Positions 4,588 through 62,440 of a stretch of DNA of 64,000 nucleotides are shown piece after piece. The position numbers and the translations under genes were made by a program. The stretch's first letter is position 1, and each line of letters begins with the position of its first letter. The notes under the pieces are model-generated. The model searched no databases. It worked only from the letters and a program-made list of their open reading frames with translations, and was not told the DNA's origin. The stretch spans positions 87,296-151,295 of the forward strand of contig CAWGHH010000001.1 in the NCBI GenBank assembly GCA_963822405.1, read 5' to 3'. The stretch is from Candidatus Uhrbacteria bacterium (GTDB taxonomy: Bacteria > Patescibacteriota > Patescibacteriia > UBA9934).

Positions 4588-4656
4588 ATTGCTTAGATAT
4601 TAGCACGAAGGGCATAGCAACGCCATGCCAGCGCATCTGAGGTATACTTTCCGTAT

Positions 4657-29518: not shown

Positions 29519-29568
29519 GCCGGTGTGCGGTGGGTTCCAATCCCCACTGCGCACCGGTCGCTTTTTTT
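29519..29568 (+). terminator. Long hairpin plus T7
   Basis: CCGGTGTGCGGTGGG...CCCACTGCGCACCGG followed by TTTTTTT. Confidence 0.6.
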
Positions 29569-48779: not shown

Positions 48780-51845
<3,066 letters not shown>

Positions 51846-51907
51846 CTAAGCATCAGTAAGTGCAGATCTCTATACAAAATAATACGAAGTTAAACAATGA
51901 AAGATCG

Positions 51908-52027
51908 CAGTGTCTTGGTGGCACTTTCTGCAGGGTCACACCCGTTCCCATCCCGAACACGGCCGTTAAGCCTGCATGAGCCGATGGTAGTTAAGTGTAG
52001 CGAGAGTAGGTGGCCGCCAGGACACTG
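51908..52027 (+). rRNA. rrf: 5S ribosomal RNA
   Basis: Helix I CAGTGTCTTGGTGGC/GCCGCCAGGACACTG; internal CCGAACACGGCCGTTAAG and CGAGAGTAGG. Confidence 0.8.
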
Positions 52028-52046
52028 CGATTTTTCAAACAAAGAA

Positions 52047-52072
52047 CCCGATTCGAAAGAGTCGGTTTTTTT
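52047..52072 (+). terminator. Hairpin CCGATTC-GAAA-GAGTCGG plus T7 (module copy 1), followed by a TATACT -10-like element
   Basis: Read in sequence; repeated at 53222, 54679 and 55435 with T5, G11 and G8 runs. Confidence 0.6.
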
Positions 52073-52089
52073 GTTATACTGCGTACACT

Positions 52090-52608
52090 ATGTATTCACG
52101 AGCACAGGTGGCGACTCGATTGTTTGGGATGATGGGAACATTTATTGCGCTCGGCGTAGCATTGTCGTTTGGCGTCCCGTATGTTCCTGCGGGTACTTTG
52201 GCGATACTCGGCGAATCGGCGTTTGGGTTGTTGATTGTTTTATTGATTCTAGGGGAACTCCATAATCCACCAAAGCCTTACCAAGACGAGCTTCTGACGA
52301 GGCGTGATGAGGTATGGATTAATAAATGTGAAGCTGTCTCCTTGTTGTTGCTCATTGTGTCCGTTCTTTTGTTCCCCGTAATGACACAGTTTGCGATTCC
52401 CTATGCGGTTAGCGTTGGGGTGTATGGGGGATGTGTACTAGTACTTTTAGGGTCGTCGAGCTTCATTATTGGTCGAATAACTCTAGGGAAACACGGATTA
52501 CGACGCCCATCATTTACCGGAAATTCCGCAAAAGTGGTTTCGATTTTTTTGTGCGTATGCGGTTCTGGCTGCATCTCATTCTTTTTGCATTTGTTGATCG
52601 GAGCATAG
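52090..52608 (+). CDS. Integral membrane protein, function unknown
   Basis: About 5 TM helices; follows the module promoter. Confidence 0.4.
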   Translation: MYSRAQVATRLFGMMGTFIALGVALSFGVPYVPAGTLAILGESAFGLLIVLLILGELHNPPKPYQDELLTRRDEVWINKCEAVSLLLLIVSVLLFPVMTQFAIPYAVSVGVYGGCVLVLLGSSSFIIGRITLGKHGLRRPSFTGNSAKVVSIFLCVCGSGCISFFLHLLIGA

Positions 52609-52686
52609 ATAGATATTCCGAGTCGAAAGGCTCGGCTTTTTTGTTGGTTGACTTCTGGGATGCGAGTCGATATTATCTTGATAAGT

Positions 52687-52839
52687 ATGGCTACGAAGAA
52701 TAAGCAATACAGTTCGGTTGAAGCAAAGAAGATTGTCGATGAGTATATCGATCAATCGGCTGTTCGATTGGCTCAAAGATTGAAGAAGGGATATGCCGTG
52801 CAGAAGAAGCAAGTGGCCAAGGCGCATGCCTATGCCTAG
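52687..52839 (+). CDS. Putative antitoxin
   Basis: Small basic ORF overlapping the toxin-like ORF. Confidence 0.3.
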   Translation: MATKNKQYSSVEAKKIVDEYIDQSAVRLAQRLKKGYAVQKKQVAKAHAYA

Positions 52840-53179
52840 GGTGTACTTCAGTGAATCGGCTATTTCATCCATTAAGGGCTTCATCCGTGCGTACGAGGAG
52901 GCCTTTTTTGAATTGTATCGAGATGGCGGTTTGGCGGATGAGCGGTTGATTGTCGAAAACTACCGATTGTCTGCAAAACAGATAAGCACCCAGATATTTA
53001 TTGAGATCGAAATGCATCTGGGTAGTAAAAAGGTATTTGGGCGAAAAGAGCATACGCAGTGGCAGGAACTTACGTTTTACGTCGGGAGTCGCTTGATAAC
53101 TGTGTATTACACTGACAACGAAGATAATTCGAGACTAGTCGAGGTTATCGGCATTGAGAGAAAACCGATTATATTTTAG
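52832..53179 (+). CDS. ParE/RelE-fold toxin-like protein
   Basis: ...SRLITVYYTDNEDNSRLVEVIGIERKP C-terminal pattern. Confidence 0.35.
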   Translation: MPRVYFSESAISSIKGFIRAYEEAFFELYRDGGLADERLIVENYRLSAKQISTQIFIEIEMHLGSKKVFGRKEHTQWQELTFYVGSRLITVYYTDNEDNSRLVEVIGIERKPIIF

Positions 53180-53221
53180 CGACCGTTGGTATTAGGACAC
53201 GGTGATTTTTCAAACAAAGAA

Positions 53222-53245
53222 CCCGATTCGTAAGAGTCGGTTTTT
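53222..53245 (+). terminator. Module copy 2: hairpin CCGATTCGTAAGAGTCGG plus T5
   Basis: Read in sequence. Confidence 0.5.
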
Positions 53246-53262
53246 GATATACTGCGTTTACT

Positions 53263-54648
53263 ATGGAACACGGAAAATCTTTGGGGGATGTATTGAGGCC
53301 TGAATGGGTTCGAAATCGTAAAGAGTCGACCGCAGAAGAGCATCCATCGAACGACAGAAAGGAACAGGAAATCAGTAGAGAAGTGGGGGAAAGGTATGTC
53401 CTCATCGTTGATGAAGTTGTTCCGGGCTCGGCGATGGAGCTAGCCGGAGTACAGGCGGGTGATCAAATTTTCGCGATAGGTGAGAAGGCTATTAGAAATA
53501 AGTTTCTTGCCTCGTCTGTTCAGGAGTGGGCGGGGGAACCAAAAGTCTTTAATATTTTTAGGGACGAAGAGTACGTTGATGTCACAGTTCAGCCTGTCTG
53601 GAATGCACAAACAAATCTATGGTCGCTTGGTGCACGTTTCACCGCTGCAATTGTCACAGTGGAGTCAGAGAAAGAAATTGAACAGACGGAAGTTCAGCGT
53701 GTAGCAATTGAAGCATACGGTGCCCGCGGGTATGCGGATCTTGGTCCAAGTGAAGAGGTACAAGGTGAGTCCGGAAAATATAGAAAAGAGATACGCGCTT
53801 TTGTACTTTTTGGACTAGATAAGGAAGGAAACCCTACCGAACTCGATCTTCTCAAACGTTTTAACCCTACGAATGTTAAGGTGTATGAGCAGAAAAGCAT
53901 TGAAAGCGCGGGTTTATGTACGAGAACGGACATCCAGGTCAAGAGCGTTACATCGAAGAATGCTCCTCACATCATCTTGCATGAATTACGCCATGCGAAT
54001 CAATACGAAACGGGAATGTTTGGAGACATTGAAAGTCGCTATCGGAGTACGTCTGACGAGAGCTATCAACAAAACGACACCTGGAAGCTTACTAACGGAA
54101 ATTTCCTTACGTTTTTAAAAATTCTCGAGCACTTTTTCTCCGATGAACAGATAGATGACATTTTGAAGAATTATCAAAAAAAGAGCCGGCGGGTTATGAA
54201 GATTAGTAACATGTTGAGTGATCCGAACCATCGGGGATCTTCAGATGATAAGGTATTAGAAGAAGAACTTGTGAAGGCCAAGGCGGAGTTTGATCGTGTC
54301 TCCGCTCCTGACGCAGAAATGATACCCGGTGTGACGATACGGGACGTTTTCCGGCTTCCTACGCTCCTCATGGAACGAGACGCGGAATACGGAGCGCTTG
54401 TGGCTATACGAGCGATCAAACGAGAAATCGGCACTGATCTTTTTGAGGACGATGCAACAAAGAAAATGCTAAAATTCTTTGATAAAGAGGGGAAGTCGGG
54501 CTCCAAAGAAGGAGTTATAACCATGCAAAAATTACGAGGCAAAATTCAAACACTCGCGAACATCGAGCATTACATGCAAATGATAGGCGTCCCGGAAAAT
54601 TGTTTGAGGGACATTCGTTCCGCGGCAAAACAAACGATCAAGGCGTAG
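53263..54648 (+). CDS. PDZ-domain protein with an HExxH motif (putative metallopeptidase-like); novel architecture
   Basis: PDZ-like YVLIVDEVVPGSAMELAGVQAGDQIFAIGEKAI; HELRH at ILHELRHANQYE. Confidence 0.4.
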   Translation: MEHGKSLGDVLRPEWVRNRKESTAEEHPSNDRKEQEISREVGERYVLIVDEVVPGSAMELAGVQAGDQIFAIGEKAIRNKFLASSVQEWAGEPKVFNIFRDEEYVDVTVQPVWNAQTNLWSLGARFTAAIVTVESEKEIEQTEVQRVAIEAYGARGYADLGPSEEVQGESGKYRKEIRAFVLFGLDKEGNPTELDLLKRFNPTNVKVYEQKSIESAGLCTRTDIQVKSVTSKNAPHIILHELRHANQYETGMFGDIESRYRSTSDESYQQNDTWKLTNGNFLTFLKILEHFFSDEQIDDILKNYQKKSRRVMKISNMLSDPNHRGSSDDKVLEEELVKAKAEFDRVSAPDAEMIPGVTIRDVFRLPTLLMERDAEYGALVAIRAIKREIGTDLFEDDATKKMLKFFDKEGKSGSKEGVITMQKLRGKIQTLANIEHYMQMIGVPENCLRDIRSAAKQTIKA

Positions 54649-54678
54649 CTCGGTGTTTTGTTTTGCACAAGCATTCCT

Positions 54679-54703
54679 CGACTCGAAGAGTCGGGGGGGG
54701 GGG
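54679..54703 (+). promoter_or_regulatory. Module copy 3: hairpin CGACTC-GAA-GAGTCG followed by a G11 homopolymer and an AT-rich promoter-like sequence
   Basis: G-run at 54693-54703, read in sequence. Confidence 0.45.
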
Positions 54704-54736
54704 TAATATAGGAGAAAAGTTACTAACATATTTAAT

Positions 54737-55375
54737 ATGGGCGTTGAGAAAGAAGATAAAGATCCCAATGCTAGGCATTGGATAGCATCGAGAAAGCCTG
54801 AGCCGACAATTGAAAGTACGCAAGAATATGCTAAAGAGAAACCTGTAATTGAAAGCAGGCTGGGTAGTCTCTATAAACCAACAGCTGCTGAGGAAACTGA
54901 GCGTAAATTACATCCTGAATTACATGAGGAGGGTGGTTTAGACGCAGTTAAAAAGAGGATCGCGAATTTGAAGAAAGGTCACGGTAAATTGATAATTCCT
55001 CCCGGGTACATTACTGACAGAGAGATGGAATCAAATAGAGTTTTAGGCGAGCGTTATCAAGAATCATCAAATGAAATTAAAAGATTAGAAGGAATAATAC
55101 GGGATTCCGAATTGAACGATGAGAATGAAGCAAATAGTTTGCGTGTGGCTGAAGTAGAGAGAATCAAGGAGTCCGCGGATCTTTCAGCAAGAAATAAAAG
55201 GGATAGCGCAATGTTAGACGAACGAAAACAAAAAGCTGAGAAAGAGCATTGGGCCGAATATCAAAGACGACTTTACGAGGCGCAGATAAAACTTCAAACG
55301 GCGTGGTTTTGGCAACGCGCTGGTCTTCAGAAGACAATTGATTTCTATGAGGCAGAATTTAAGAACAGGAAATAA
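54737..55375 (+). CDS. Highly charged coiled-coil protein, paralog A (conserved AWFWQR C-terminal motif)
   Basis: 212-aa ORF; a paralog of 55493-56218. Confidence 0.45.
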   Translation: MGVEKEDKDPNARHWIASRKPEPTIESTQEYAKEKPVIESRLGSLYKPTAAEETERKLHPELHEEGGLDAVKKRIANLKKGHGKLIIPPGYITDREMESNRVLGERYQESSNEIKRLEGIIRDSELNDENEANSLRVAEVERIKESADLSARNKRDSAMLDERKQKAEKEHWAEYQRRLYEAQIKLQTAWFWQRAGLQKTIDFYEAEFKNRK

Positions 55376-55434
55376 TCTTTACATTTTGATTAAGAAGTAG
55401 TCAAAAAATGATTGTATTGATTTTTTAAGCAAAG

Positions 55435-55459
55435 CCCGATTCGAAAGAGTCGGGGGGGG
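55435..55459 (+). promoter_or_regulatory. Module copy 4: hairpin CCGATTCGAAAGAGTCGG followed by a G8 homopolymer
   Basis: Read in sequence. Confidence 0.45.
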
Positions 55460-55492
55460 TAAAATTAGAACAAAGTCACGAACATAATTAAT

Positions 55493-56218
55493 ATGGCCGT
55501 TGAGAAAGAAGGAGGAGACCCGAAGGCTAAAGATTGGAAGGCGCCGGAAAAAGCGCCGAAAAAATACGATGAGATTAAACGCATTGAAGACTCTATAGCG
55601 TCCATGAGGAAGGGTTACGGCGGTAAGAAGGAAGACGATCCAAAAATATCTGAATTTGAAAAGATGCTCGTTAGGGCAAAAGAAAGAAAGGCGCAAGATG
55701 ATGCTTGGCTTGAGCAGTCCCCCGAACTTCGGGCTGTGGGTGGTTTAAAAGCAGCTAACGAAAAACTTACGAAGTTAAGGGAAGAGATGAATAAAATGTC
55801 AAAAATACTTAGTATATCTCCTCATCCTGATTTTATTGAAGCGGGCGTGTACGAGCGTAGTGATGGTCAGAAAAGAGCATCGGAACGATACGATATAATG
55901 AATACTGAAGTACGAAGGTTGGAAGGGATAATTAAGGGTCAAGAATCGTATACGTTTGATGAAGAGAAAAAGAAGAAAACGTTAGAGGTGCAACAGGAGG
56001 AAGATAGAGGGCGTGAACTTAAAAAGGAATGGAAGGAGCTGCAAAAAAGAAGGGATGATGCTAAGGATAAACTTGATCAGGCTTGGTTTTGGCAACGCCG
56101 CGCAATACAAGAAGAGATCGAGTCTATAGATACAGAATTAGAAAATTTGAGAAAACGAATAGAGAAGGAGGATAAAATAAGGAAAGAAAGAGTAGACAAA
56201 GCAATTTACGGTAAGTAG
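55493..56218 (+). CDS. Highly charged coiled-coil protein, paralog B
   Basis: Shares the N-terminus M(G/A)VEKE..DP.A..W, a central ...RRLEGII..., and the C-terminal AWFWQR. Confidence 0.45.
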   Translation: MAVEKEGGDPKAKDWKAPEKAPKKYDEIKRIEDSIASMRKGYGGKKEDDPKISEFEKMLVRAKERKAQDDAWLEQSPELRAVGGLKAANEKLTKLREEMNKMSKILSISPHPDFIEAGVYERSDGQKRASERYDIMNTEVRRLEGIIKGQESYTFDEEKKKKTLEVQQEEDRGRELKKEWKELQKRRDDAKDKLDQAWFWQRRAIQEEIESIDTELENLRKRIEKEDKIRKERVDKAIYGK

Positions 56219-56396
56219 TTCTAAATAATCCAACAATTACCCGGCCCCATAAAGGTTGGGTATTTGTTATACTCGACGAAACATAAATTCTATGGACAAT
56301 TTGCCAGGTGAAGGTCGGGGTTTTTGTTTTCGAGCAAAATAAGTCCCCCGCACCAAGATGGTCGGGGGATTTGGCGTGCGGCGAGGTGGACGCGAG

Positions 56397-56874
56397 TCAT
56401 GAGGGGCTGTACGTGAGGAAGGCGCGGACCAGGGAATCAATCCAGACGAGAGCGCGTTTGTTGTCTGGAGAGTTGAGATTGGGACGGTAGTGAATGTCAT
56501 TTTTGTCCCAGCCTTGAAGCTTCGAGAGAGCGCTGACGATGCGGACTTCGGTGTCATTTTCCGCGTCATCCCTGAGGAGCCTGTCTGTACCAGTGAGCAA
56601 TGCCATCGAGGTTGAGTTCGTAGCAGATATTGAAGAGGCGATCCGTGTTGCTATCTTCGTTCCGGGAGAGGCAGACCTCTATCTCTGGAAGGCCTGTCGA
56701 TGTATCAACGCTATCCCCCCATGAGAGACGCAGGTTATTCTGGCTCGTACTCCAGATCATTCCGCCAGCGCGGGATTCACAGAGGATTATTTTTCCGATA
56801 CAGGCTTTGTCGATTGGAATCTTGACTAGGTTTCTTATCCTTCGAACGTGCGTTACGACTTCCAGCTTATTCAT
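56397..56874 (-). pseudogene. Hypothetical protein (paralog of 56978-57436), apparently frameshifted near 56600
   Basis: Two overlapping ORFs. The C-terminal ALVWIDSLVRAFLTYSP matches AFEWIDAMLRSFLNYEP of the neighbour. Confidence 0.35.
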
Positions 56875-56977
56875 TGGAATATCCTCCCGGCTCAATTTAC
56901 CCTAAATAAACAAAGAGCGCATCCGGAAGGCATGGCCAGCCGGATGGCTGTGGCTCTTTGCCCCGCGGATGCGCGAG

Positions 56978-57436
56978 TTAGGCGGTGACTGGCTCGTAGT
57001 TCAGGAACGAGCGCAGCATGGCGTCAATCCATTCGAACGCCTGGGCGTCGGAAGTTGCGATGGTCGGGCCGGGTTCCCAGGCTTTCAGCTCGGGGAGACG
57101 CGCGAGAAGATCCTTCAGATCTTCATCTTGTTCGTTCTCCGGTTCGGGCCCTTGTTGCGACCAGACCATGCCATGCGACCCGTCTTCGGAGTAGCTGACG
57201 GTCACGATCCAGAATTGCTGATTCCATTCGGCGACTTCGATCATCAGCGCCTGGATGGAATCTTTCTCTGCCGAGAGAAACCAACGAATGCACAGGCCGT
57301 TCTTGGAGATCTCCCAACCCTTGCCGTGCCCGTCTTCGAACGGGGTAATCAACGGCACCTTCTTTCCCGCGTTAATTACGCGGTCTCGCAGTTGATCAGT
57401 CACGTCCAGAATCTGTTCGTTAAACGGTTGAACCAT
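56978..57436 (-). CDS. Hypothetical protein (paralog family)
   Basis: GGGAGGG RBS 7 nt upstream of the ATG at 57436. Confidence 0.4.
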   Translation of the reverse strand: MVQPFNEQILDVTDQLRDRVINAGKKVPLITPFEDGHGKGWEISKNGLCIRWFLSAEKDSIQALMIEVAEWNQQFWIVTVSYSEDGSHGMVWSQQGPEPENEQDEDLKDLLARLPELKAWEPGPTIATSDAQAFEWIDAMLRSFLNYEPVTA

Positions 57437-57596
57437 GTTTGTTACCCTCCCAAGCATGCCGGAACCCCCGGCGGATTGCTGTCTTTCGACCAAAGATATT
57501 GCCATAAATGAGTAGGAAAGTCCAGTTTGGGCTGTTATGGACTTTAAAACTTTACGTCTTTACAACTTTATAACTTCCCCTCATACTGTCACCAAT

Positions 57597-58373
57597 ATGA
57601 ATGACACCAAAGTGGTGATTCTGGCGGCGGGGAAGGGAAAGCGCATGGGCGCTAATGTTCCGAAACCCCTTGTGAAGATAGCGGGAAAGGCCATGATTTC
57701 GCATTTACTGGAAAGGGTGCGGGCGTCTGGGCTCGACCAAAAGCCAGTTGTCATAGTTTCTGTTGACGGAAAAGCTGATTTTGAAGCCGAACTTGGCGAT
57801 TCTGTAGATTTTGCGGTACAAGTTGAACAAAATGGGACGGGCGATGCTTTGCGGTATGCCGAGGAAGCTTGCAAGGGCGCATCGAGAATCATTGTTCTAT
57901 ACGGCGATCATCCATTTATTAGTGCGGACGTTTTGAAGCAACTCGCCGATCTATCTTCGAAGAATCATGGAGATATCGCTATGTTGACGGCGACCGTGCC
58001 AAACTTTGAAGGAGATTTTGGGATGTTTGTGAAGTGGGGGAAAATCATTCGTGAAAATTCGGCGAAGGGGCATGGCGGCGCCATGCCCGTACAAGCGTTG
58101 CGCGAGGTTAAGGATTGCTCGCCGGAAGAGCTGGCGATCACAGAAGTAAATCCAGGGATTTATGCTTTTCCGGTTCCTTGGGTATTCGACAGATTGAAAG
58201 ATGTGAAGAACGAGAATGCCAGCGGTGAATATTATTTGACGGACTTGATTGGGCTTGCTATGCAAGAAGGAAGAAAGATTGTGACTGCGTCAGTAGATCC
58301 TTTGCAGGTTGTTGGGATCAATACGCCTGATGAGCTCATCAAAGCTGAAGAGCTGTTAACTAAATATATATGA
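57597..58373 (+). CDS. Sugar-phosphate nucleotidyltransferase resembling the GlmU N-terminal uridylyltransferase domain
   Basis: VVILAAGKGKRMGANVPKPLVKIAGKAMISHLLERV nucleotidyltransferase signature; no LbH acetyltransferase domain. Confidence 0.55.
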   Translation: MNDTKVVILAAGKGKRMGANVPKPLVKIAGKAMISHLLERVRASGLDQKPVVIVSVDGKADFEAELGDSVDFAVQVEQNGTGDALRYAEEACKGASRIIVLYGDHPFISADVLKQLADLSSKNHGDIAMLTATVPNFEGDFGMFVKWGKIIRENSAKGHGGAMPVQALREVKDCSPEELAITEVNPGIYAFPVPWVFDRLKDVKNENASGEYYLTDLIGLAMQEGRKIVTASVDPLQVVGINTPDELIKAEELLTKYI

Positions 58374-59125
58374 GCACCATAAGACCCGCGGAGGACGTGC
58401 TTGAGAAGCTCGGGCTATCGCCCAAAGAAACGCGCGTGTACATCACCCTTTTGAAGGAGGGGCCGTCCAGCGTTCGCCAAATGGCAGCGGCTACGGGCAT
58501 CAATCGGGGGACGGTTTATGATTCGCTCAAGAACCTGCAAGTCATGGGACTTGCTCGTTTTTATAATAAGGAGACAAAACAGTATTTTGTAGCTGCACCG
58601 CCGGTGAAACTTGAGGAACTCGCCCAAGAGAAGATGGATGATTTGAAGCGCGCAAACGAGAAATTGTCGCACGTAATTGCCGAGCTCGACAGCGTATATG
58701 ACGGGGGAGGAACGGATCCGGTTGCGCGGATGTACGAGGGTCCAGAAGGAATTAAAGTGATTTTGCAGGATGTTTTGGCGAGTATGGAGGCAGCCAAGGA
58801 GAAAGAATATTACGTGTATTCGTCGAGTGCCGTGCGCGAGGCTGGTTTGTACTCGGCATTTTCCACATACACCGCAGAACGACTCGACGCGCGGATTCGG
58901 GTGAAGAACATTTCGCTTGGCAAGGGCGGATCTACGGCTGGACTAGACGAACGTAAATGGATTCCCGCTACGGAAGGCTCGCCAACATATATTTTGATTT
59001 ACGCCGGAAAAGTGGCGAACATTTTCTTAGACAAAAAGGGCGAGCTGGTTGGTTTGATCATTGAAAATAAGGGCATTTATCAAACTCAGAAGATTTTGTT
59101 CGCGTCACTTTGGGAGAGGTTGTAG
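58370..59125 (+). CDS. TrmB-family HTH transcriptional regulator (second copy)
   Basis: LGLSPKETRVYITLLKEGPSSVRQMAAATGINRGTVYDSLKNL. Confidence 0.6.
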   Translation: MSTIRPAEDVLEKLGLSPKETRVYITLLKEGPSSVRQMAAATGINRGTVYDSLKNLQVMGLARFYNKETKQYFVAAPPVKLEELAQEKMDDLKRANEKLSHVIAELDSVYDGGGTDPVARMYEGPEGIKVILQDVLASMEAAKEKEYYVYSSSAVREAGLYSAFSTYTAERLDARIRVKNISLGKGGSTAGLDERKWIPATEGSPTYILIYAGKVANIFLDKKGELVGLIIENKGIYQTQKILFASLWERL

Positions 59126-59781
59126 AATGGGCGAGTATGATCGACGTTGCCACGGTGCAATCATTTTTCATTGATAGCCTTAAATCAGCGCGTGAAGACG
59201 TTGAATTATTTGCGTTAGATTTCTTCAAACTAGTTAGGGCTTTGGGGGTGTGGGCGGTGCCGTTCGTATTGTCGATTATTGCTATCGCTGCGCTTCCTGC
59301 GGTGTTTGCGACGCACATTGGCAAGCTGACCGATGCAATTATCGGTGCTCGAGGTGTGGGAACAATGACGATCGATGTGACGCGCGCGATTCGAATTCTT
59401 ACTGGTGCAACGATCGTTGGTTTTCTTGCTGAAATGTTTTTGAGCAGGTTTGAAGGGAAGGCGGGGGTCATGGCGAGTACGGCGTACGGCCTTGGTGTTC
59501 TCGTTGTTCTGGCGATAATGCTCGGGAATCTAGGGTGGTACGGTGTCGCCCTTTGGCCGATTGTTTTGCTTGTCACTCGAACTATTTTGAAGAAAATTCC
59601 GTATCTGCAGTTTGTTTTCGTGATTCCTGTTGTTCTGTTATTTTTGTCATGTGCGACGAATGTGATTCAGTACGCGACGATCCGTGCGATCACTGTCGGT
59701 GCGGCTATGTCGACGGTAGCGGCGGCGGGGATGTATGCGGTGGTGGTGGCGGTGGTGATGTTGAAACGTGATTCAGCCTGA
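59110..59781 (+). CDS. Integral membrane protein, function unknown
   Basis: About 6 TM helices. Confidence 0.4.
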   Translation: MGEVVEWASMIDVATVQSFFIDSLKSAREDVELFALDFFKLVRALGVWAVPFVLSIIAIAALPAVFATHIGKLTDAIIGARGVGTMTIDVTRAIRILTGATIVGFLAEMFLSRFEGKAGVMASTAYGLGVLVVLAIMLGNLGWYGVALWPIVLLVTRTILKKIPYLQFVFVIPVVLLFLSCATNVIQYATIRAITVGAAMSTVAAAGMYAVVVAVVMLKRDSA

Positions 59782-59874
59782 ACCACCGAGGCCCTTCGGG
59801 GCAGACCAACCACCTCCCCCTACCCCCTCCTTAGAAAGGAGGGGAGGCGAACCATCCTGACCATTAAATACCGT

Positions 59875-60282
59875 ATGCCCAACCATCTCATCGCCGACAT
59901 CCCCGTGAAGGCTCTCATTCGTAAAGACGATAAAATTTTGTTGATCCAGCAGGCGGATGGCAAGGAAGACTGGTGCTTACCGGGTGGTCGTCTGAATAAT
60001 GGTGAACAGCCGAGAGAAGGTTTGCGTCGCGAGATATTGGAAGAAATCGGCGCCGAGATTGAGATCGGTAGGCTCGTCGACTGTACAGTTTTCACGAGTA
60101 AATCCGGCATGAACCATTTTGTGGTAGTTTTCGAGGCGACTCTCGTCGGTAATAGCCAACCAAAGCCGGACGGTGTAGAAATCAAAGATGTTAAATGGGT
60201 TACGCTCGAGGAGGCGTTGAAGATGGAGTTGAGAAGTGAATATCGGGTAATTCTCGAAGGACTCGCCGCCAGGATCAAATAA
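59875..60282 (+). CDS. NUDIX hydrolase
   Basis: Nudix box GGRLNNGEQPREGLRREILEEIG. Confidence 0.7.
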   Translation: MPNHLIADIPVKALIRKDDKILLIQQADGKEDWCLPGGRLNNGEQPREGLRREILEEIGAEIEIGRLVDCTVFTSKSGMNHFVVVFEATLVGNSQPKPDGVEIKDVKWVTLEEALKMELRSEYRVILEGLAARIK

Positions 60283-60322
60283 CACCACCTCTAGGCCCCT
60301 CCTAACGTCGGGGACCAATGCT

Positions 60323-61564
60323 ATGAAAATAATCGCCGATCTACATGTTCACTCCCGTTTTTCGCGTGCATGTTCGCAGGATTTAACACTCGAAAATAAC
60401 GCGTTGTGGTGCGAGAAGAAGGGGGTGAATGTTTTGGGGACGGGGGATTTTACGCATCCACTTTGGTTCAAAGAAATAGAAGAGAAACTCGTCGAAGCCG
60501 AGTCAGGACTCTACAAGTTGAAGAGTGGAGAGTTTTCGAAAATGCGGTTCATGATGACGACCGAAGTCTCGCAGATCTATAAGAGGGGAGGAAAAGTACG
60601 ACGCGTGCACAATTTAATTTTTGCACCAAACATTGAGTGCGTGAAAAAAATAAATGCGTGGCTCGACGAACATAAATTTAATCGGCGGAATGATGGTCGG
60701 CCAATTTTAGGAATTGATTCGGAAGATTTATATCGCGAACTAAAAAACCTCGACGATAAAATTATTCTTGTACCGGCGCACGCGTGGACACCGTGGTATT
60801 CGGTATTTGGTTCGAAGAGCGGGTTTGATTCGCTCGAAGAATGTTTTGGTGAGATGACGAAAGAAATTTTTGCGATCGAGACGGGATTGTCGAGCGACCC
60901 CGCGATGAATCGAACACTTAGTGTACTCGACGACATTTCTTTGATCTCAAACTCTGATGCGCACTCGCCTAAAAACTTTGGAAGAGAAGCGAATGTCTTT
61001 GAAATTGATGAAAAGAAATTATCTTACGATGAAATTATTCGCACGATTCGTGAGCGAGATATTGCACACTTTTTGTATACGATCGAGTTTTATCCGGGGG
61101 AGGGAAAGTACTATGCGGATGGGCATGCACCCTGTGGGCTGACCTTTGAGACTAAGGAGACTTTGAGACTGGGAGGGAGATGCCCGAAATGCGGAGGACC
61201 AATAACGGTGGGGGTTTTGTCGAGAGTTGAGGAGTTGGGGGATCGCCCCACTTTCGACCCCCTCTATCCCCCTAGAAGGGGGAAGGAGCAATCCATTCCA
61301 TTCAAATCCATTGTGCCACTGCCGGAAATACTTGCGCAGTGTTTGGGGGTGTCGAGTGTGTCGTCGAAGAAGGTGATGACGTTGTACGAGGAGATGATAA
61401 AAACATTAGGCAGCGAGTTTAATATTTTATTAGAAGTTTCTGTTTTAGAAATTCGTTCGCAGTTTGGTAACACTGTCGCTGAAGCGATTGCACGAGTGCG
61501 CGCGGGAAAAGTTTCCGTTACTCCTGGTTATGACGGAATATTTGGTGTAGTAAAAATATTTTAA
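60323..61564 (+). CDS. PHP-domain protein of the endonuclease Q / TIGR00375-like family, with a C-terminal CxxC zinc ribbon
   Basis: N-terminus ADLHVHSRFSRACS...LGTGDFTHPLW; CPKCGG. Contains an in-frame hairpin CCCCCTAGAAGGGGG encoding PPRRG. Confidence 0.5.
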   Translation: MKIIADLHVHSRFSRACSQDLTLENNALWCEKKGVNVLGTGDFTHPLWFKEIEEKLVEAESGLYKLKSGEFSKMRFMMTTEVSQIYKRGGKVRRVHNLIFAPNIECVKKINAWLDEHKFNRRNDGRPILGIDSEDLYRELKNLDDKIILVPAHAWTPWYSVFGSKSGFDSLEECFGEMTKEIFAIETGLSSDPAMNRTLSVLDDISLISNSDAHSPKNFGREANVFEIDEKKLSYDEIIRTIRERDIAHFLYTIEFYPGEGKYYADGHAPCGLTFETKETLRLGGRCPKCGGPITVGVLSRVEELGDRPTFDPLYPPRRGKEQSIPFKSIVPLPEILAQCLGVSSVSSKKVMTLYEEMIKTLGSEFNILLEVSVLEIRSQFGNTVAEAIARVRAGKVSVTPGYDGIFGVVKIF

Positions 61565-61577
61565 TTTTTAAACTTTT

Positions 61578-61618
61578 TTCCCGGCAAAGCCGGGCTCGGC
61601 TACGCCGGAAACTTTTTT
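61578..61618 (+). terminator. Hairpin CCCGGCAAAGCCGGG and a second small hairpin, followed by T6
   Basis: Read in sequence. Confidence 0.4.
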
Positions 61619-61732
61619 ACAGCTAAAGTTGTGCACAGCTTGTGTGAATAAAAATGGATGTGTGTTGAAAACTCGATATACTAGTAGCAAGTCAAGCATT
61701 ACTTGACCCGAAGATTTTTAACTCTACGTATA

Positions 61733-61839
61733 TGGCAGTCGCAAAAAAGGCGAAGAAGCCAGCTAAGAAGGTAGCAGCAAAGCGCAAGCCAGCCGCACGC
61801 AAGCCAGCTAAGAAGGCAGCAGCTAAGAAGCGCCGCTAG
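61733..61839 (+). CDS. 35-aa lysine/alanine-rich histone-H1-like basic protein (KKPAKK repeats); absent from the ORF track
   Basis: ATG GCA GTC GCA AAA AAG ... AAG CGC CGC TAG. A TTGACC -35-like element and inverted repeat GTCAAG/CTTGAC lie upstream; a terminator lies downstream. Confidence 0.4.
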
Positions 61840-61881
61840 TTTCTCAGACGAGCATGTCCTTGGAGGAGATGCTGGTCAAAC

Positions 61882-61909
61882 AAAAAATTCCCGTGAGGGA
61901 ATTTTTTTA
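61882..61909 (+). terminator. Hairpin AATTCCC-GTGA-GGGAATT plus T7
   Basis: Read in sequence. Confidence 0.6.
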
Positions 61910-61911
61910 TT

Positions 61912-62030
61912 GTCCTCATCTGATCACTCAAGGGAGAGAGTCCTTAAGTGATCGGATGAGGGGACGACGGCTGTGCAAGCGCATCGTCCACGAGTCACTT
62001 TGCTGTTCTGGCACAGAAAGTGAGAAATAT
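61912..62030. repeat. Structured repeat R1 (three consecutive stem-loops; lacks the 45-nt prefix)
   Basis: About 90% identical to 63890-63999. Confidence 0.7.
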
Positions 62031-62036
62031 GCCGGA

Positions 62037-62333
62037 TCAGTGGCGCTTGATCCAGCCACCGTTATTCGTGCGGTGTCCCTCTGCGTGGATCTTTTTGATT
62101 TCATCCCACAAAGTGGCGCGAGCCGTCTTGGGCGTCATGTCAGCCGGAGCGGCCAGCAGGACGAAGTCGTAGACGGCCTTCCTGTGACAATCGCCACAGT
62201 AGCCGTCATCCCAGCAACAGCACGGGCCTCGCCCGTGGTCCAGGCTCCGGGACTCGGCCCGGCCAGGGTGAAGCCCCGGGCGAGCAACTGCTCGCGAACA
62301 AGGTTCGAGCGCGTTTTGATGATGGGCATGTGC
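62037..62333 (-). CDS. Hypothetical Cys/Gly-rich protein, possibly frameshifted (G+C-rich region)
   Basis: ATG with GGAGGG lies inside the repeat prefix. Two overlapping - strand frames are both protein-like. Confidence 0.3.
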   Translation of the reverse strand, partial: AHAHHQNALEPCSRAVARPGLHPGRAESRSLDHGRGPCCCWDDGYCGDCHRKAVYDFVLLAAPADMTPKTARATLWDEIKKIHAEGHRTNNGGWIKRH

Positions 62334-62335
62334 CC

Positions 62336-62440
62336 TCCAATCGAGCAACGCGATCGCGCATGAGCTGCGCAGTGATCGGTCCTCATCTGATCACTCAAGG
62401 GAGAGAGTCCTTAAGTGATCGGATAAGGAGAGAGCTCAAC
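62336..62440. repeat. Structured repeat R2 (45-nt prefix containing CGCGATCGCG, then the first stem-loop, then diverged)
   Basis: Prefix identical to 63847-63890. Confidence 0.7.

Follow-up and report, generated by a model that had tools for sequence, protein, structure and literature searches.

In Neisseria meningitidis, a poly-G or poly-C tract of about 8–14 nt between the −35 and −10 elements of porA and opc sets promoter strength. In the vlp family of Mycoplasma hyorhinis, a homopolymer tract is present in the conserved promoter region of every paralogue, and insertions and deletions in it switch the genes, each with a transcript of its own, on or off independently (PMC10502178, citing Citti and Wise 1995). 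Intergenic repeats alter the spacing of promoter elements (PMC5084427). In Campylobacter, poly-G tracts of G8–G11 switch at 1e-4 to 1.6e-3 per division; in Campylobacter jejuni there is a bias to insertion at G8 and to deletion at G11 or longer, and a minority of the tracts are intergenic (PMC8355987). In the 5′ untranslated region of Haemophilus influenzae hmw1A, a repeat lies beside a structure that matters both for expression and for repeat instability (PMC12721329). Here we describe two poly-G modules, each with a hairpin sequence, an uninterrupted G tract and a −10-like hexamer, that precede two paralogous genes, CC1 and CC2, in a 64-kb stretch of DNA (the window) that is probably from a bacterium of the Candidate Phyla Radiation (CPR). 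The modules lie in a 4.2-kb stretch that starts 7 nt 3′ of a 5S rRNA gene and is best explained as a variable gene island with two kinds of junction element, one in which a terminator is followed by a promoter and the other comprising the poly-G modules.

Related hairpins occur five times in the window, at 52048, 52618, 53223, 54676 and 55436 (designated c1, c5, c2, c3 and c4, respectively), and are of two types. Type A is the hairpin CCGATTC-GAAA-GAGTCGG; in type B, a 3-nt loop separates the arms of a perfect palindrome. An earlier note on this DNA described a single module present four times, in front of genes starting at 52090, 53263, 54737 and 55493. These four start codons, and the positions of the homopolymers that follow the hairpins (T7, 52066–52072; T5, 53241–53245; G11, 54693–54703; G8, 55452–55459), are all correct. 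The recurrence is also non-random, since the 18-mer CCGATTCGAAAGAGTCGG has four matches in the window with three mismatches or fewer (52048, 52618, 53223 and 55436) as compared with a mean of 0.10 matches per shuffle and no shuffle with four among 100. However, the hairpin at 52618–52635 had been missed, there are two module types rather than one, and the hairpin in front of G11 (54676–54696), taken to be the same as the others, is a perfect palindrome of type B. Further copies, for which the note proposed a search, are the type-A copy at 52618 and two copies of the poly-G module in a related species.

The module in front of CC1 (c3, + strand) contains a type-B palindrome with an 11-bp stem (CCTCGACTC-GAA-GAGTCGGGG, 54676–54696), the G11 tract (54693–54703), the hexamer TAATAT (54704–54709) and a 27-nt leader without a Shine-Dalgarno sequence that ends at the ATG of CC1 (54737; hexamer to start codon, 54704–54739). 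The 5′ arm of the palindrome includes TCGACT (54678–54683), which is separated from TAATAT by 20 bp. Immediately upstream, at 54649–54675, is a degenerate remnant of a type-A terminator (GCTCGG-TGTTTTGTTTTGCACAAGCATT). In the module in front of CC2 (c4, + strand), a 5S-trailer-like sequence, GATTTTTTAAGCAAAG, and a type-A hairpin (55435–55454) that is fused to the G-run together occupy 55419–55454; they are followed by the G8 tract (55452–55459), TAAAAT (55460–55465) and a 27-nt leader that ends at the ATG of CC2 (55493; 55460–55495). This module is a hybrid, and its spacer of 18 bp is measured from CCGATT in the type-A hairpin to TAAAAT. G11 and G8 are the sole runs of seven or more G or C residues in the window.

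Homologous modules are present in a 16.8-kb contig of Joint Genome Institute (JGI) sample 3300013232, designated L127, that was reached by cluster look-ups of conserved flanking genes. The 5S rRNA gene of L127 is 100% identical to that of the window, the 3′ end of the 23S rRNA gene is 98.2% identical and the shared coding DNA is 82–89% identical, so that the two represent different species of the same genus. The 5S rRNA gene of L127 is followed by the same type-A hairpin with CTTTTTT; GTTTTGCACAAGTGTTCCT is then the spacer before the type-B palindrome, after which come G8 and TATATT, with an ATG 26 nt further on. A second composite, with G10 and TAATAT, is located 3′ of a pair of genes encoding proteins of 50 and 115 amino acids (aa) that is common to both genomes. 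The c1 hairpin is found in identical form at L127 999–1016 and palindrome B at 1038–1062 and 2265–2289; all three copies of type B are perfect inverted repeats, and in the L127 composites parts A and B each form a strong hairpin of their own. Unpaired runs of at least seven G or C residues are limited in L127 to this G8 (1057–1064) and this G10 (2284–2293), in the same position of the module. The degenerate remnant upstream of c3 aligns with L127 1017–1042 and 2244–2269 and is the counterpart of the 3′ arm, T-run and spacer of the intact composite, of which a weak A:U-rich stem is left. Because a full terminator precedes both modules of L127, the gene downstream of each probably needs a promoter inside the module, and the arrangement TCGACT-17-TATATT of the G8 copy scores 9/12 in a consensus scan.

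The four modules of the two genomes have in common the 3′ arm of the hairpin, at least eight uninterrupted G residues, a TAnAnT hexamer, a leader of 26–27 nt with the motif AAA(A/G)T(T/C)ACnAAC, and ATATGG. The order palindrome, Gn, TAnAnT, leader, ATG is unlike that of the terminator junctions. In three of the four copies, the first codons (M-x-V-E-K/R-E) are conserved as well. The tract is directly before TAnAnT and starts 9 nt past TCGACT, so that n G residues give a spacer of 9 + n bp: 17 bp for the first module of the relative (G8), 19 bp for its second (G10) and 20 bp for c3. The lengths of 8, 10, 11 and 8 thus differ among homologous copies with flanks that are constant apart from single-nucleotide indels in the leader and in the loop, and all four tracts are in the range of phase-variable tracts (uninterrupted, about 7–8 nt or more of G or C). 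TCGACT is one mismatch from the −35 element of a promoter in the same island, TTGACT-17-TATTAT, that is conserved in the relative. The hybrid c4 has exactly the structure to be expected if an A–B composite loses the sequence between its two AAGAGTCGG repeats; such a deletion "replaces" the T-run by the G-run without base substitutions.

The two G-runs of the window are not independent events because they are situated in tandemly duplicated paralogous units. From the hairpin to codon 7, the units agree at about 85% of positions, and the rest of the coding sequence is near random apart from an AWFWQR block. CC1 (212 aa) and CC2 (241 aa), duplicated and fast-diverging genes in the earlier note, are paralogues with 28% identity. 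Two other roles for the sequences were considered and rejected. Pairing of the G-run with a downstream C/U-rich segment was excluded because no such segment was found in the fold analysis, and a promoter 5′ of the hairpins because there is no match to TGnTAnnnT or to −35/−10 elements there. A metagenome scan for the c3 and c4 tract plus leader gave 0 matches; a scan for the hairpin followed by G6 gave one, which is an ordinary terminator: it lies 3′ of a groEL-like gene, its G6 is paired with C6 in the stem, and it has a T-run.

We judge the chances to be about even that the poly-G modules are a family of phase-variable promoters with homopolymer spacers. The palindrome would have descended from a terminator hairpin, with its 5′ arm supplying the −35-like TCGACT, and the poly-G run would fill the spacer between this element and a TAnAnT −10 box that has no TG extension. 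G8 would give the canonical spacer of 17 bp, and G10 and G11 would give 19 and 20 bp. If strand slippage at replication added or removed G residues, each downstream gene would independently be turned up or down, and a small family of helical proteins that diverge rapidly would thereby undergo phase or volume variation. Lacking the TGn extension that most other promoters of this genome have, the modules are expected to rely on a −35 element and its spacing. From the arrangement of the sequences we infer that TAnAnT and TCGACT form a working promoter, and that tract length may vary within the population with expression following it. The earlier note had suggested a phase-variable contingency locus. 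The modules of the relative, with G8 and G10 and a full terminator upstream, and the spacers of 17–20 bp set by the tracts strengthen that suggestion, and the absence of secretion signals from the products weakens it. The more specific proposal, that a probable CPR/Patescibacteria lineage has here, next to its rRNA operon, a true contingency locus composed of an rrn-hairpin promoter cassette, a hypermutable poly-G spacer and an 11-codon head, which would switch single members of a hypervariable family of helical proteins, with the modules as crossover points for the exchange of gene bodies between related strains, is one that we hold only tentatively and find distinctly doubtful.

The tract lengths can be compared with those in the independent short-read Logan assembly of run ERR12037365, which is possibly from the same sample as the window. 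The two are identical over 51943–54703, and over 54693–61941 they differ by two single-G insertions that are in the window only (56579 and 61592). A Logan contig spans G8 at the same length. At G11 the assembly breaks exactly at the tract, with 11 G residues at both abutting contig ends. The doubt previously attached to the lengths of the G-runs is thereby largely settled, within the limit that the run may be from the same sample. The remaining Logan breaks fall in the 5S rRNA gene and at a direct repeat of 25 nt; every A7 or T7 run is read through. The break at G11 may be the signature, in a k-mer graph, of several tract lengths of which the shortest is 11. The extra G at 56579 splits a minus-strand gene into open reading frames (ORFs) of 100 and 109 aa, where the Logan assembly has an intact gene of 158 aa; the residues at 56579 and 61592 are probably assembly errors in the source of the window, or indicate a pseudogene. 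The direct repeat, CATCTGATCACTCAAGGGAGAGAGT, at 61917–61941 and 62384–62408, flanks most of the ORF at 61854–62363, and the Logan contig ends at its first copy.

Several observations weigh against phase-variable promoters, and some of them favor other explanations. TCGACT agrees with the −35 consensus at 4/6 positions and lacks the second T, and CCGATT of c4 agrees at 2/6. Most promoters in the window show no −35 consensus, so that spacing may matter little, and in AT-rich leaders a TAnAnT hexamer is readily produced by chance. It is paralogues and species that differ in tract length, not cells of one strain, and the break at G11 could equally be explained by loss of coverage or by sequencing errors across poly-G. 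The organism was found in only two samples, ERR12037365 being the only other one in exact-protein look-ups with CC1, CC2, the 461-aa protein encoded upstream of them, the NTP-transferase and TrmB. The CC products are soluble-looking, highly charged helical proteins with neither a signal peptide nor a membrane segment, and in this they do not resemble the usual products of contingency genes. Furthermore, the terminator before c3 is degenerate and there is none before c4, where any U-run is lacking, so that CC1 and CC2 could be read through from the promoter of the 461-aa gene. This is the basis of an alternative in which c3 and c4 are terminators disarmed by the exchange of the U-run for a G-run and the promoter at 53245 serves the 461-aa gene, CC1 and CC2 as one operon, with the tract length neutral and the hairpins at most elements of RNA processing or stability. 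An rG:dC hybrid after a hairpin opposes intrinsic termination, and the −35-like element is weak and, in c4, almost absent, both of which suit this alternative. On the other hand, both poly-G modules of L127 follow an intact CTTTTTT terminator, one of them after the rrn operon, and read-through is probably blocked there; in addition, at least eight uninterrupted G residues are retained in all four copies amid diverging neighboring sequence, and the spacing to the ATG is conserved, as is the TAnAnT box. We regard disarmed terminators as unlikely. It is quite improbable, in our view, that palindrome B (GACTC-N3-GAGTC) is the operator of a dimeric regulator over the promoter, with poly-G a rigid, neutrally drifting spacer. 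The perfect inverted repeat in three copies would suit an operator, as would the prediction that palindrome B is untranscribed if the upstream terminator works and the start site lies downstream, and a gene for a TrmB-family regulator is located 3 kb downstream; however, there is no evidence for the putative binding protein, c4 retains the G-run and leader with an imperfect type-A hairpin, and a neutral spacer is not expected to remain an uninterrupted homopolymer in four copies.

The modules might instead be mainly recombination joints, short intergenic sequences in common through which related strains swap gene cassettes downstream of rrn, the homopolymers being incidental. This is compatible with the other readings, phase-variable promoters included, and is possible, though as the principal role of the modules rather doubtful. 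Between the same flanks, from the 5S rRNA gene to the NTP-transferase gene, the two genomes have different genes: the island at 52023–56345 and L127 974–6552 share only the 50-aa/115-aa pair and a junction, c6, near the end of the island. The stretch from the 5S rRNA gene to the convergent minus-strand genes before the NTP-transferase gene is a gene-replacement hot spot. Several breakpoints are at or inside modules, namely right after TTTTTTGTT of c1, within the loop of the c5 hairpin in L127, at the c4 deletion between the AAGAGTCGG repeats, and where a remnant of the gene rel344 is fused to sequence like the 3′ arm of hairpin A. Copies of the 5S trailer in c2 and c4 are also in accord with recombination. 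Nevertheless, the comparison is of two genomes, no recombinase or transposase is present in or beside the island, the common stretches are short (about 20–75 nt), and the maintenance of the G-runs is left unexplained. Finally, the two single-G insertions of the window relative to Logan and the failure of Logan to span G11 could be taken to indicate that the G-runs are sequencing or assembly artefacts arising from two-color poly-G calls or a mis-join. This is barely conceivable: a Logan contig spans G8 at the same length; the contig that starts in G11 runs into unique sequence, which dark-cycle poly-G tails should be unable to do; and G8 and G10 stand at the homologous positions in another species, in a JGI assembly with no connection to this one.

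The remaining hairpin copies, those with T-runs, appear to be ordinary intrinsic terminators, with the actual transcript ends predicted. The c1 element (52029–52072, + strand) comprises the 5S trailer (GATTTTTCAAACAAAGAAC), the type-A hairpin (52048–52065) and T7 (52066–52072) and is assigned as the intrinsic terminator of the rrn operon. It is 25 nt 3′ of the 5S gene, and on the + strand its fold has an energy of −18.3 kcal/mol (z −4.6); the − strand reaches only −10.5, because a G·U pair turns into a C·A mismatch there. A terminator role on the minus strand was rejected, given the weak hairpin there and the lack of a convergent gene. The location of c1, the recurrence of the 18-mer after 5S and tRNA genes elsewhere and the stability on the + strand together bear out the suggestion that the hairpins with T7 and T5 are intrinsic terminators. 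The c5 element (52618–52689, + strand) has a type-A variant, CCGAGTCGAAAGGCTCGG, followed by CT6, with the hairpin at 52618–52635, a promoter and the ATG at 52687. The c2 element (53194–53265, + strand) is a 72-nt duplicate of 52019–52092, with 66 of 74 columns identical in a local alignment, and has its type-A hairpin at 53223–53240 and T5 at 53241–53245. The duplicate extends over the last 4 nt of the 5S gene, the trailer, hairpin, T-run and −10 box to the ATG at 53263; it is the terminator for the 50-aa/115-aa gene pair and the promoter for the 461-aa gene. In c4, trailer plus hairpin are identical to 52029–52065 at 33 of 37 positions. The copies of the 5S trailer in c2 and c4 indicate that the direction of copying was from the 3′ end of rrn outwards.

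A further terminator hairpin, in c6 (56238–56342, + strand; hairpin 56238–56262), is unrelated to type A and is followed by TGTTATACT at 56265–56273 and by a remnant ORF of 16 codons, MDNLPGEGR... (MDNLPGEGRGFCFRAK, 56292–56342, + strand), of rel344 (MDNLPGDGRDRGK...), which is intact in L127. The c6 region is 82% identical to L127 4406–4481, and the truncation joins the remnant to GGTCGGGGTTTTTGTTTT, which resembles a type-A 3′ arm and T-run. U-runs are present in c1 (T7), c5 (CT6), c2 (T5) and c6; in c3 and c4 their place is taken by G11 and G8, and these two are not classed as terminators. Seven inner stem pairs are retained in all five copies of the window, with one compensatory change in c5 relative to c1. 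This is consistent with a conserved structure, and the covariation in these five sequences is not significant (107 of 500 shuffles). Junctions of the terminator–promoter kind would insulate one gene from the next and restart transcription.

The 18-mer (GAAA loop, one G·U pair) recurs as a terminator after 5S rRNA and tRNA genes across many unrelated phyla, by convergence or transfer. A scan of one genome per species gave more than 119 stretches among the matches listed, as compared with about 35 expected by chance by our own estimate. In the 127 listed occurrences, the hairpin is almost always lengthened by a G-C pair and then followed by T5–T9. Among the matches listed, it is located just 3′ of 5S rRNA or tRNA genes in Pseudoalteromonas, Colwellia, Deefgea, Vibrio, Algoriphagus, Peptoniphilus and others, and the neighboring RNA genes were confirmed by Rfam in a by-eye sample of loci. 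An unpaired G-run after the hairpin is found in none of the 127 listed occurrences elsewhere, nor in the single metagenome match. Within the window and L127, the island hairpins are not dispersed elements. A palindrome of the repetitive extragenic (REP) or miniature inverted-repeat transposable element (MITE) type was rejected because all hairpin copies of the 64 kb lie within 52048–55454 and the convincing copies of L127 are only at 999–2290. An integron cassette array was likewise rejected, as no integrase or recombinase is encoded in the island or flanking genes, and the hairpins of 18–21 nt have simple stems as compared with attC sites of 60–140 nt with paired R and L boxes. No known RNA family was found in the island by Rfam at a permissive threshold.

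A recurring promoter design in the window is TGnTAnnnT followed after 8–11 nt by ATG, which is found at 11 or more genes besides those of c1 and c2, examples being at 4605(−), 18661, 19551, 32272 and 35022(−). This appears to be the usual promoter of the genome; it has no −35 consensus and Shine-Dalgarno sequences are rare, which suggests that leaderless or near-leaderless mRNAs are widespread. A terminator hairpin right before the next promoter is common in this compact genome. In c1, the extended −10 promoter TGTTATACT (52072–52080) is separated by 9 nt from the ATG at 52090 of a 172-aa ORF (52072–52092, + strand), for which a leaderless mRNA is predicted. The corresponding element of c2, TGATATACT (53245–53253, + strand), is 9 nt from the ATG at 53263. 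An extended −10 box lies 9 or 18 nt before the ATG in c1, c2 and c6, and the c5 promoter is TTGACT-17-TATTAT (52648–52676, + strand). The TATA(C/A)T box of the original description is therefore supported as a promoter for its first two copies. The other two, c3 and c4, do not have this design: GGG precedes TAATAT or TAAAAT and the distance to the ATG is 27 nt.

CC1 and CC2 are orphan, fast-evolving helical proteins without a family or fold match. Homologue searches with CC2 alone, with a two-sequence profile against 5.8 billion proteins and with a full HMMER scan of 1.84 billion representatives together gave the two paralogues and one marginal match only. There was no match for the CC proteins in Pfam, PHROG, PADLOC or NCBIfam. 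The AlphaFold model of CC2 is all-helical (pLDDT 73.6) and has no significant match in the PDB. The first 11 codons, M-x-V-E-K/R-E-x-K-D-P-N, are found in CC1 (54737–54769) and in the first gene of L127 (1097–1129) and partly in CC2 (55493–55525). The product of the first L127 gene (169 aa) has only these 11 codons in common with CC1 (MDVEREHKDPN as compared with MGVEKEDKDPN), and by BLASTP the proteins are not alignable past this head, which seems to travel with the poly-G promoter module. The AWFW motif is present in rel333.

The pair encoding 50-aa and 115-aa proteins (window 52687–53179, L127 1713–2205) overlaps by start and stop codons in ATGCCTAG. The two products have 84% and 88% amino acid identity between the genomes, and TTGACT-17-TATTAT is conserved in front of them. 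The organization resembles that of a toxin–antitoxin pair, and no family match was found in Pfam, NCBIfam, PHROGs or PADLOC. The 461-aa protein (53263–54648) has an N-terminal PDZ domain and invariant HxxxHELRH and ERDAExGAL motifs that are common to seven distant homologues (27–31% identity), one of which is annotated as Candidatus Magasanikbacteria; these are encoded in unrelated contexts without tracts. The probable assignment of the window to the CPR is based on this annotation and on the general style of the genome. From its motifs, the protein appears to belong to an uncharacterized PDZ-fused HExxH metalloprotease-like family. Phage, defense and NCBIfam libraries gave nothing for the island proteins, and scans for viral contigs were negative. 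In the rRNA region, the 5S gene is at 51914–52022 (+ strand; Rfam RF00001, 79.3 bits), and a processing stem is formed by pairing of its trailer at 52013–52037, which includes the post-5S stretch GATTTTTCA, with 51898–51922. The 23S rRNA gene (48792–51823, Rfam) has 3,032 nt against a model of 2,925 positions, an excess that may reflect an insertion, and in the window Rfam detected no 16S gene adjoining the 23S and 5S genes. Elsewhere in the window, ggttccaatccccactgcgcacc and T7 at about 29532–29568 have the look of a tRNA or tmRNA 3′ end, with T-arm and acceptor; no gene is called there by ARAGORN or by Rfam.

If the tracts switch, the locus would be a candidate example of phase variation by repeats in bacteria of the CPR type, which are ultra-small and mostly uncultured, and its orphan helical proteins would be marked out as likely to take part in host or phage interaction. 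The locus would in addition, if the proposed origin is true, be an example of a promoter assembled from a duplicated terminator hairpin. If they do not switch, what is described is a clear small-scale gene-replacement hot spot, anchored to an rRNA operon and otherwise ordinary. A literature search gave no link of homopolymer phase variation to Patescibacteria, and the works pairing phase variation with Saccharibacteria were largely outside its scope; a paper on a Gracilibacteria genome describes a hypervariable coding repeat.

Among known systems, the nearest analogue is the vlp family of M. hyorhinis, which likewise is a cluster of paralogues with a conserved 5′ module and conserved first codons in front of diverging bodies. 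The vlp tract is poly-A in a mollicute, whereas here the tract is poly-G in an organism that is probably of the CPR, a lipoprotein signal peptide is lacking from the products, and the −35 region is inside a palindrome related to the rrn terminator hairpin; the present system is known from sequence alone. In contrast to porA and opc, which are single genes for outer-membrane proteins with a well-defined −35 element, the genes here encode orphan helical proteins, the −35 match is 4/6 and the module is duplicated with the gene. The lengths of G8–G11 are the working range in C. jejuni, although most tracts in that organism are coding and act by frameshift, and its genome is AT-rich and lacks mismatch repair. 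As in hmw1A, a simple-sequence repeat adjoins a structured element 5′ of the gene, but in hmw1A a transcribed heptamer repeat forms an arm of a hairpin that is cut by RNase III, whereas most of the G-run here is unpaired and transcription probably starts downstream of it. Compared with the Rho-independent terminators of rRNA and tRNA genes, c1, c2 and c5 are alike in having a GC-rich stem, a GNRA-type loop and a U-run, whereas c3 and c4 have no U-run. We therefore hypothesize that the locus belongs to a class that is already known, the homopolymer tract in the promoter spacer of a multigene family, and that the new features are its unusual lineage and its origin from an rRNA terminator hairpin.

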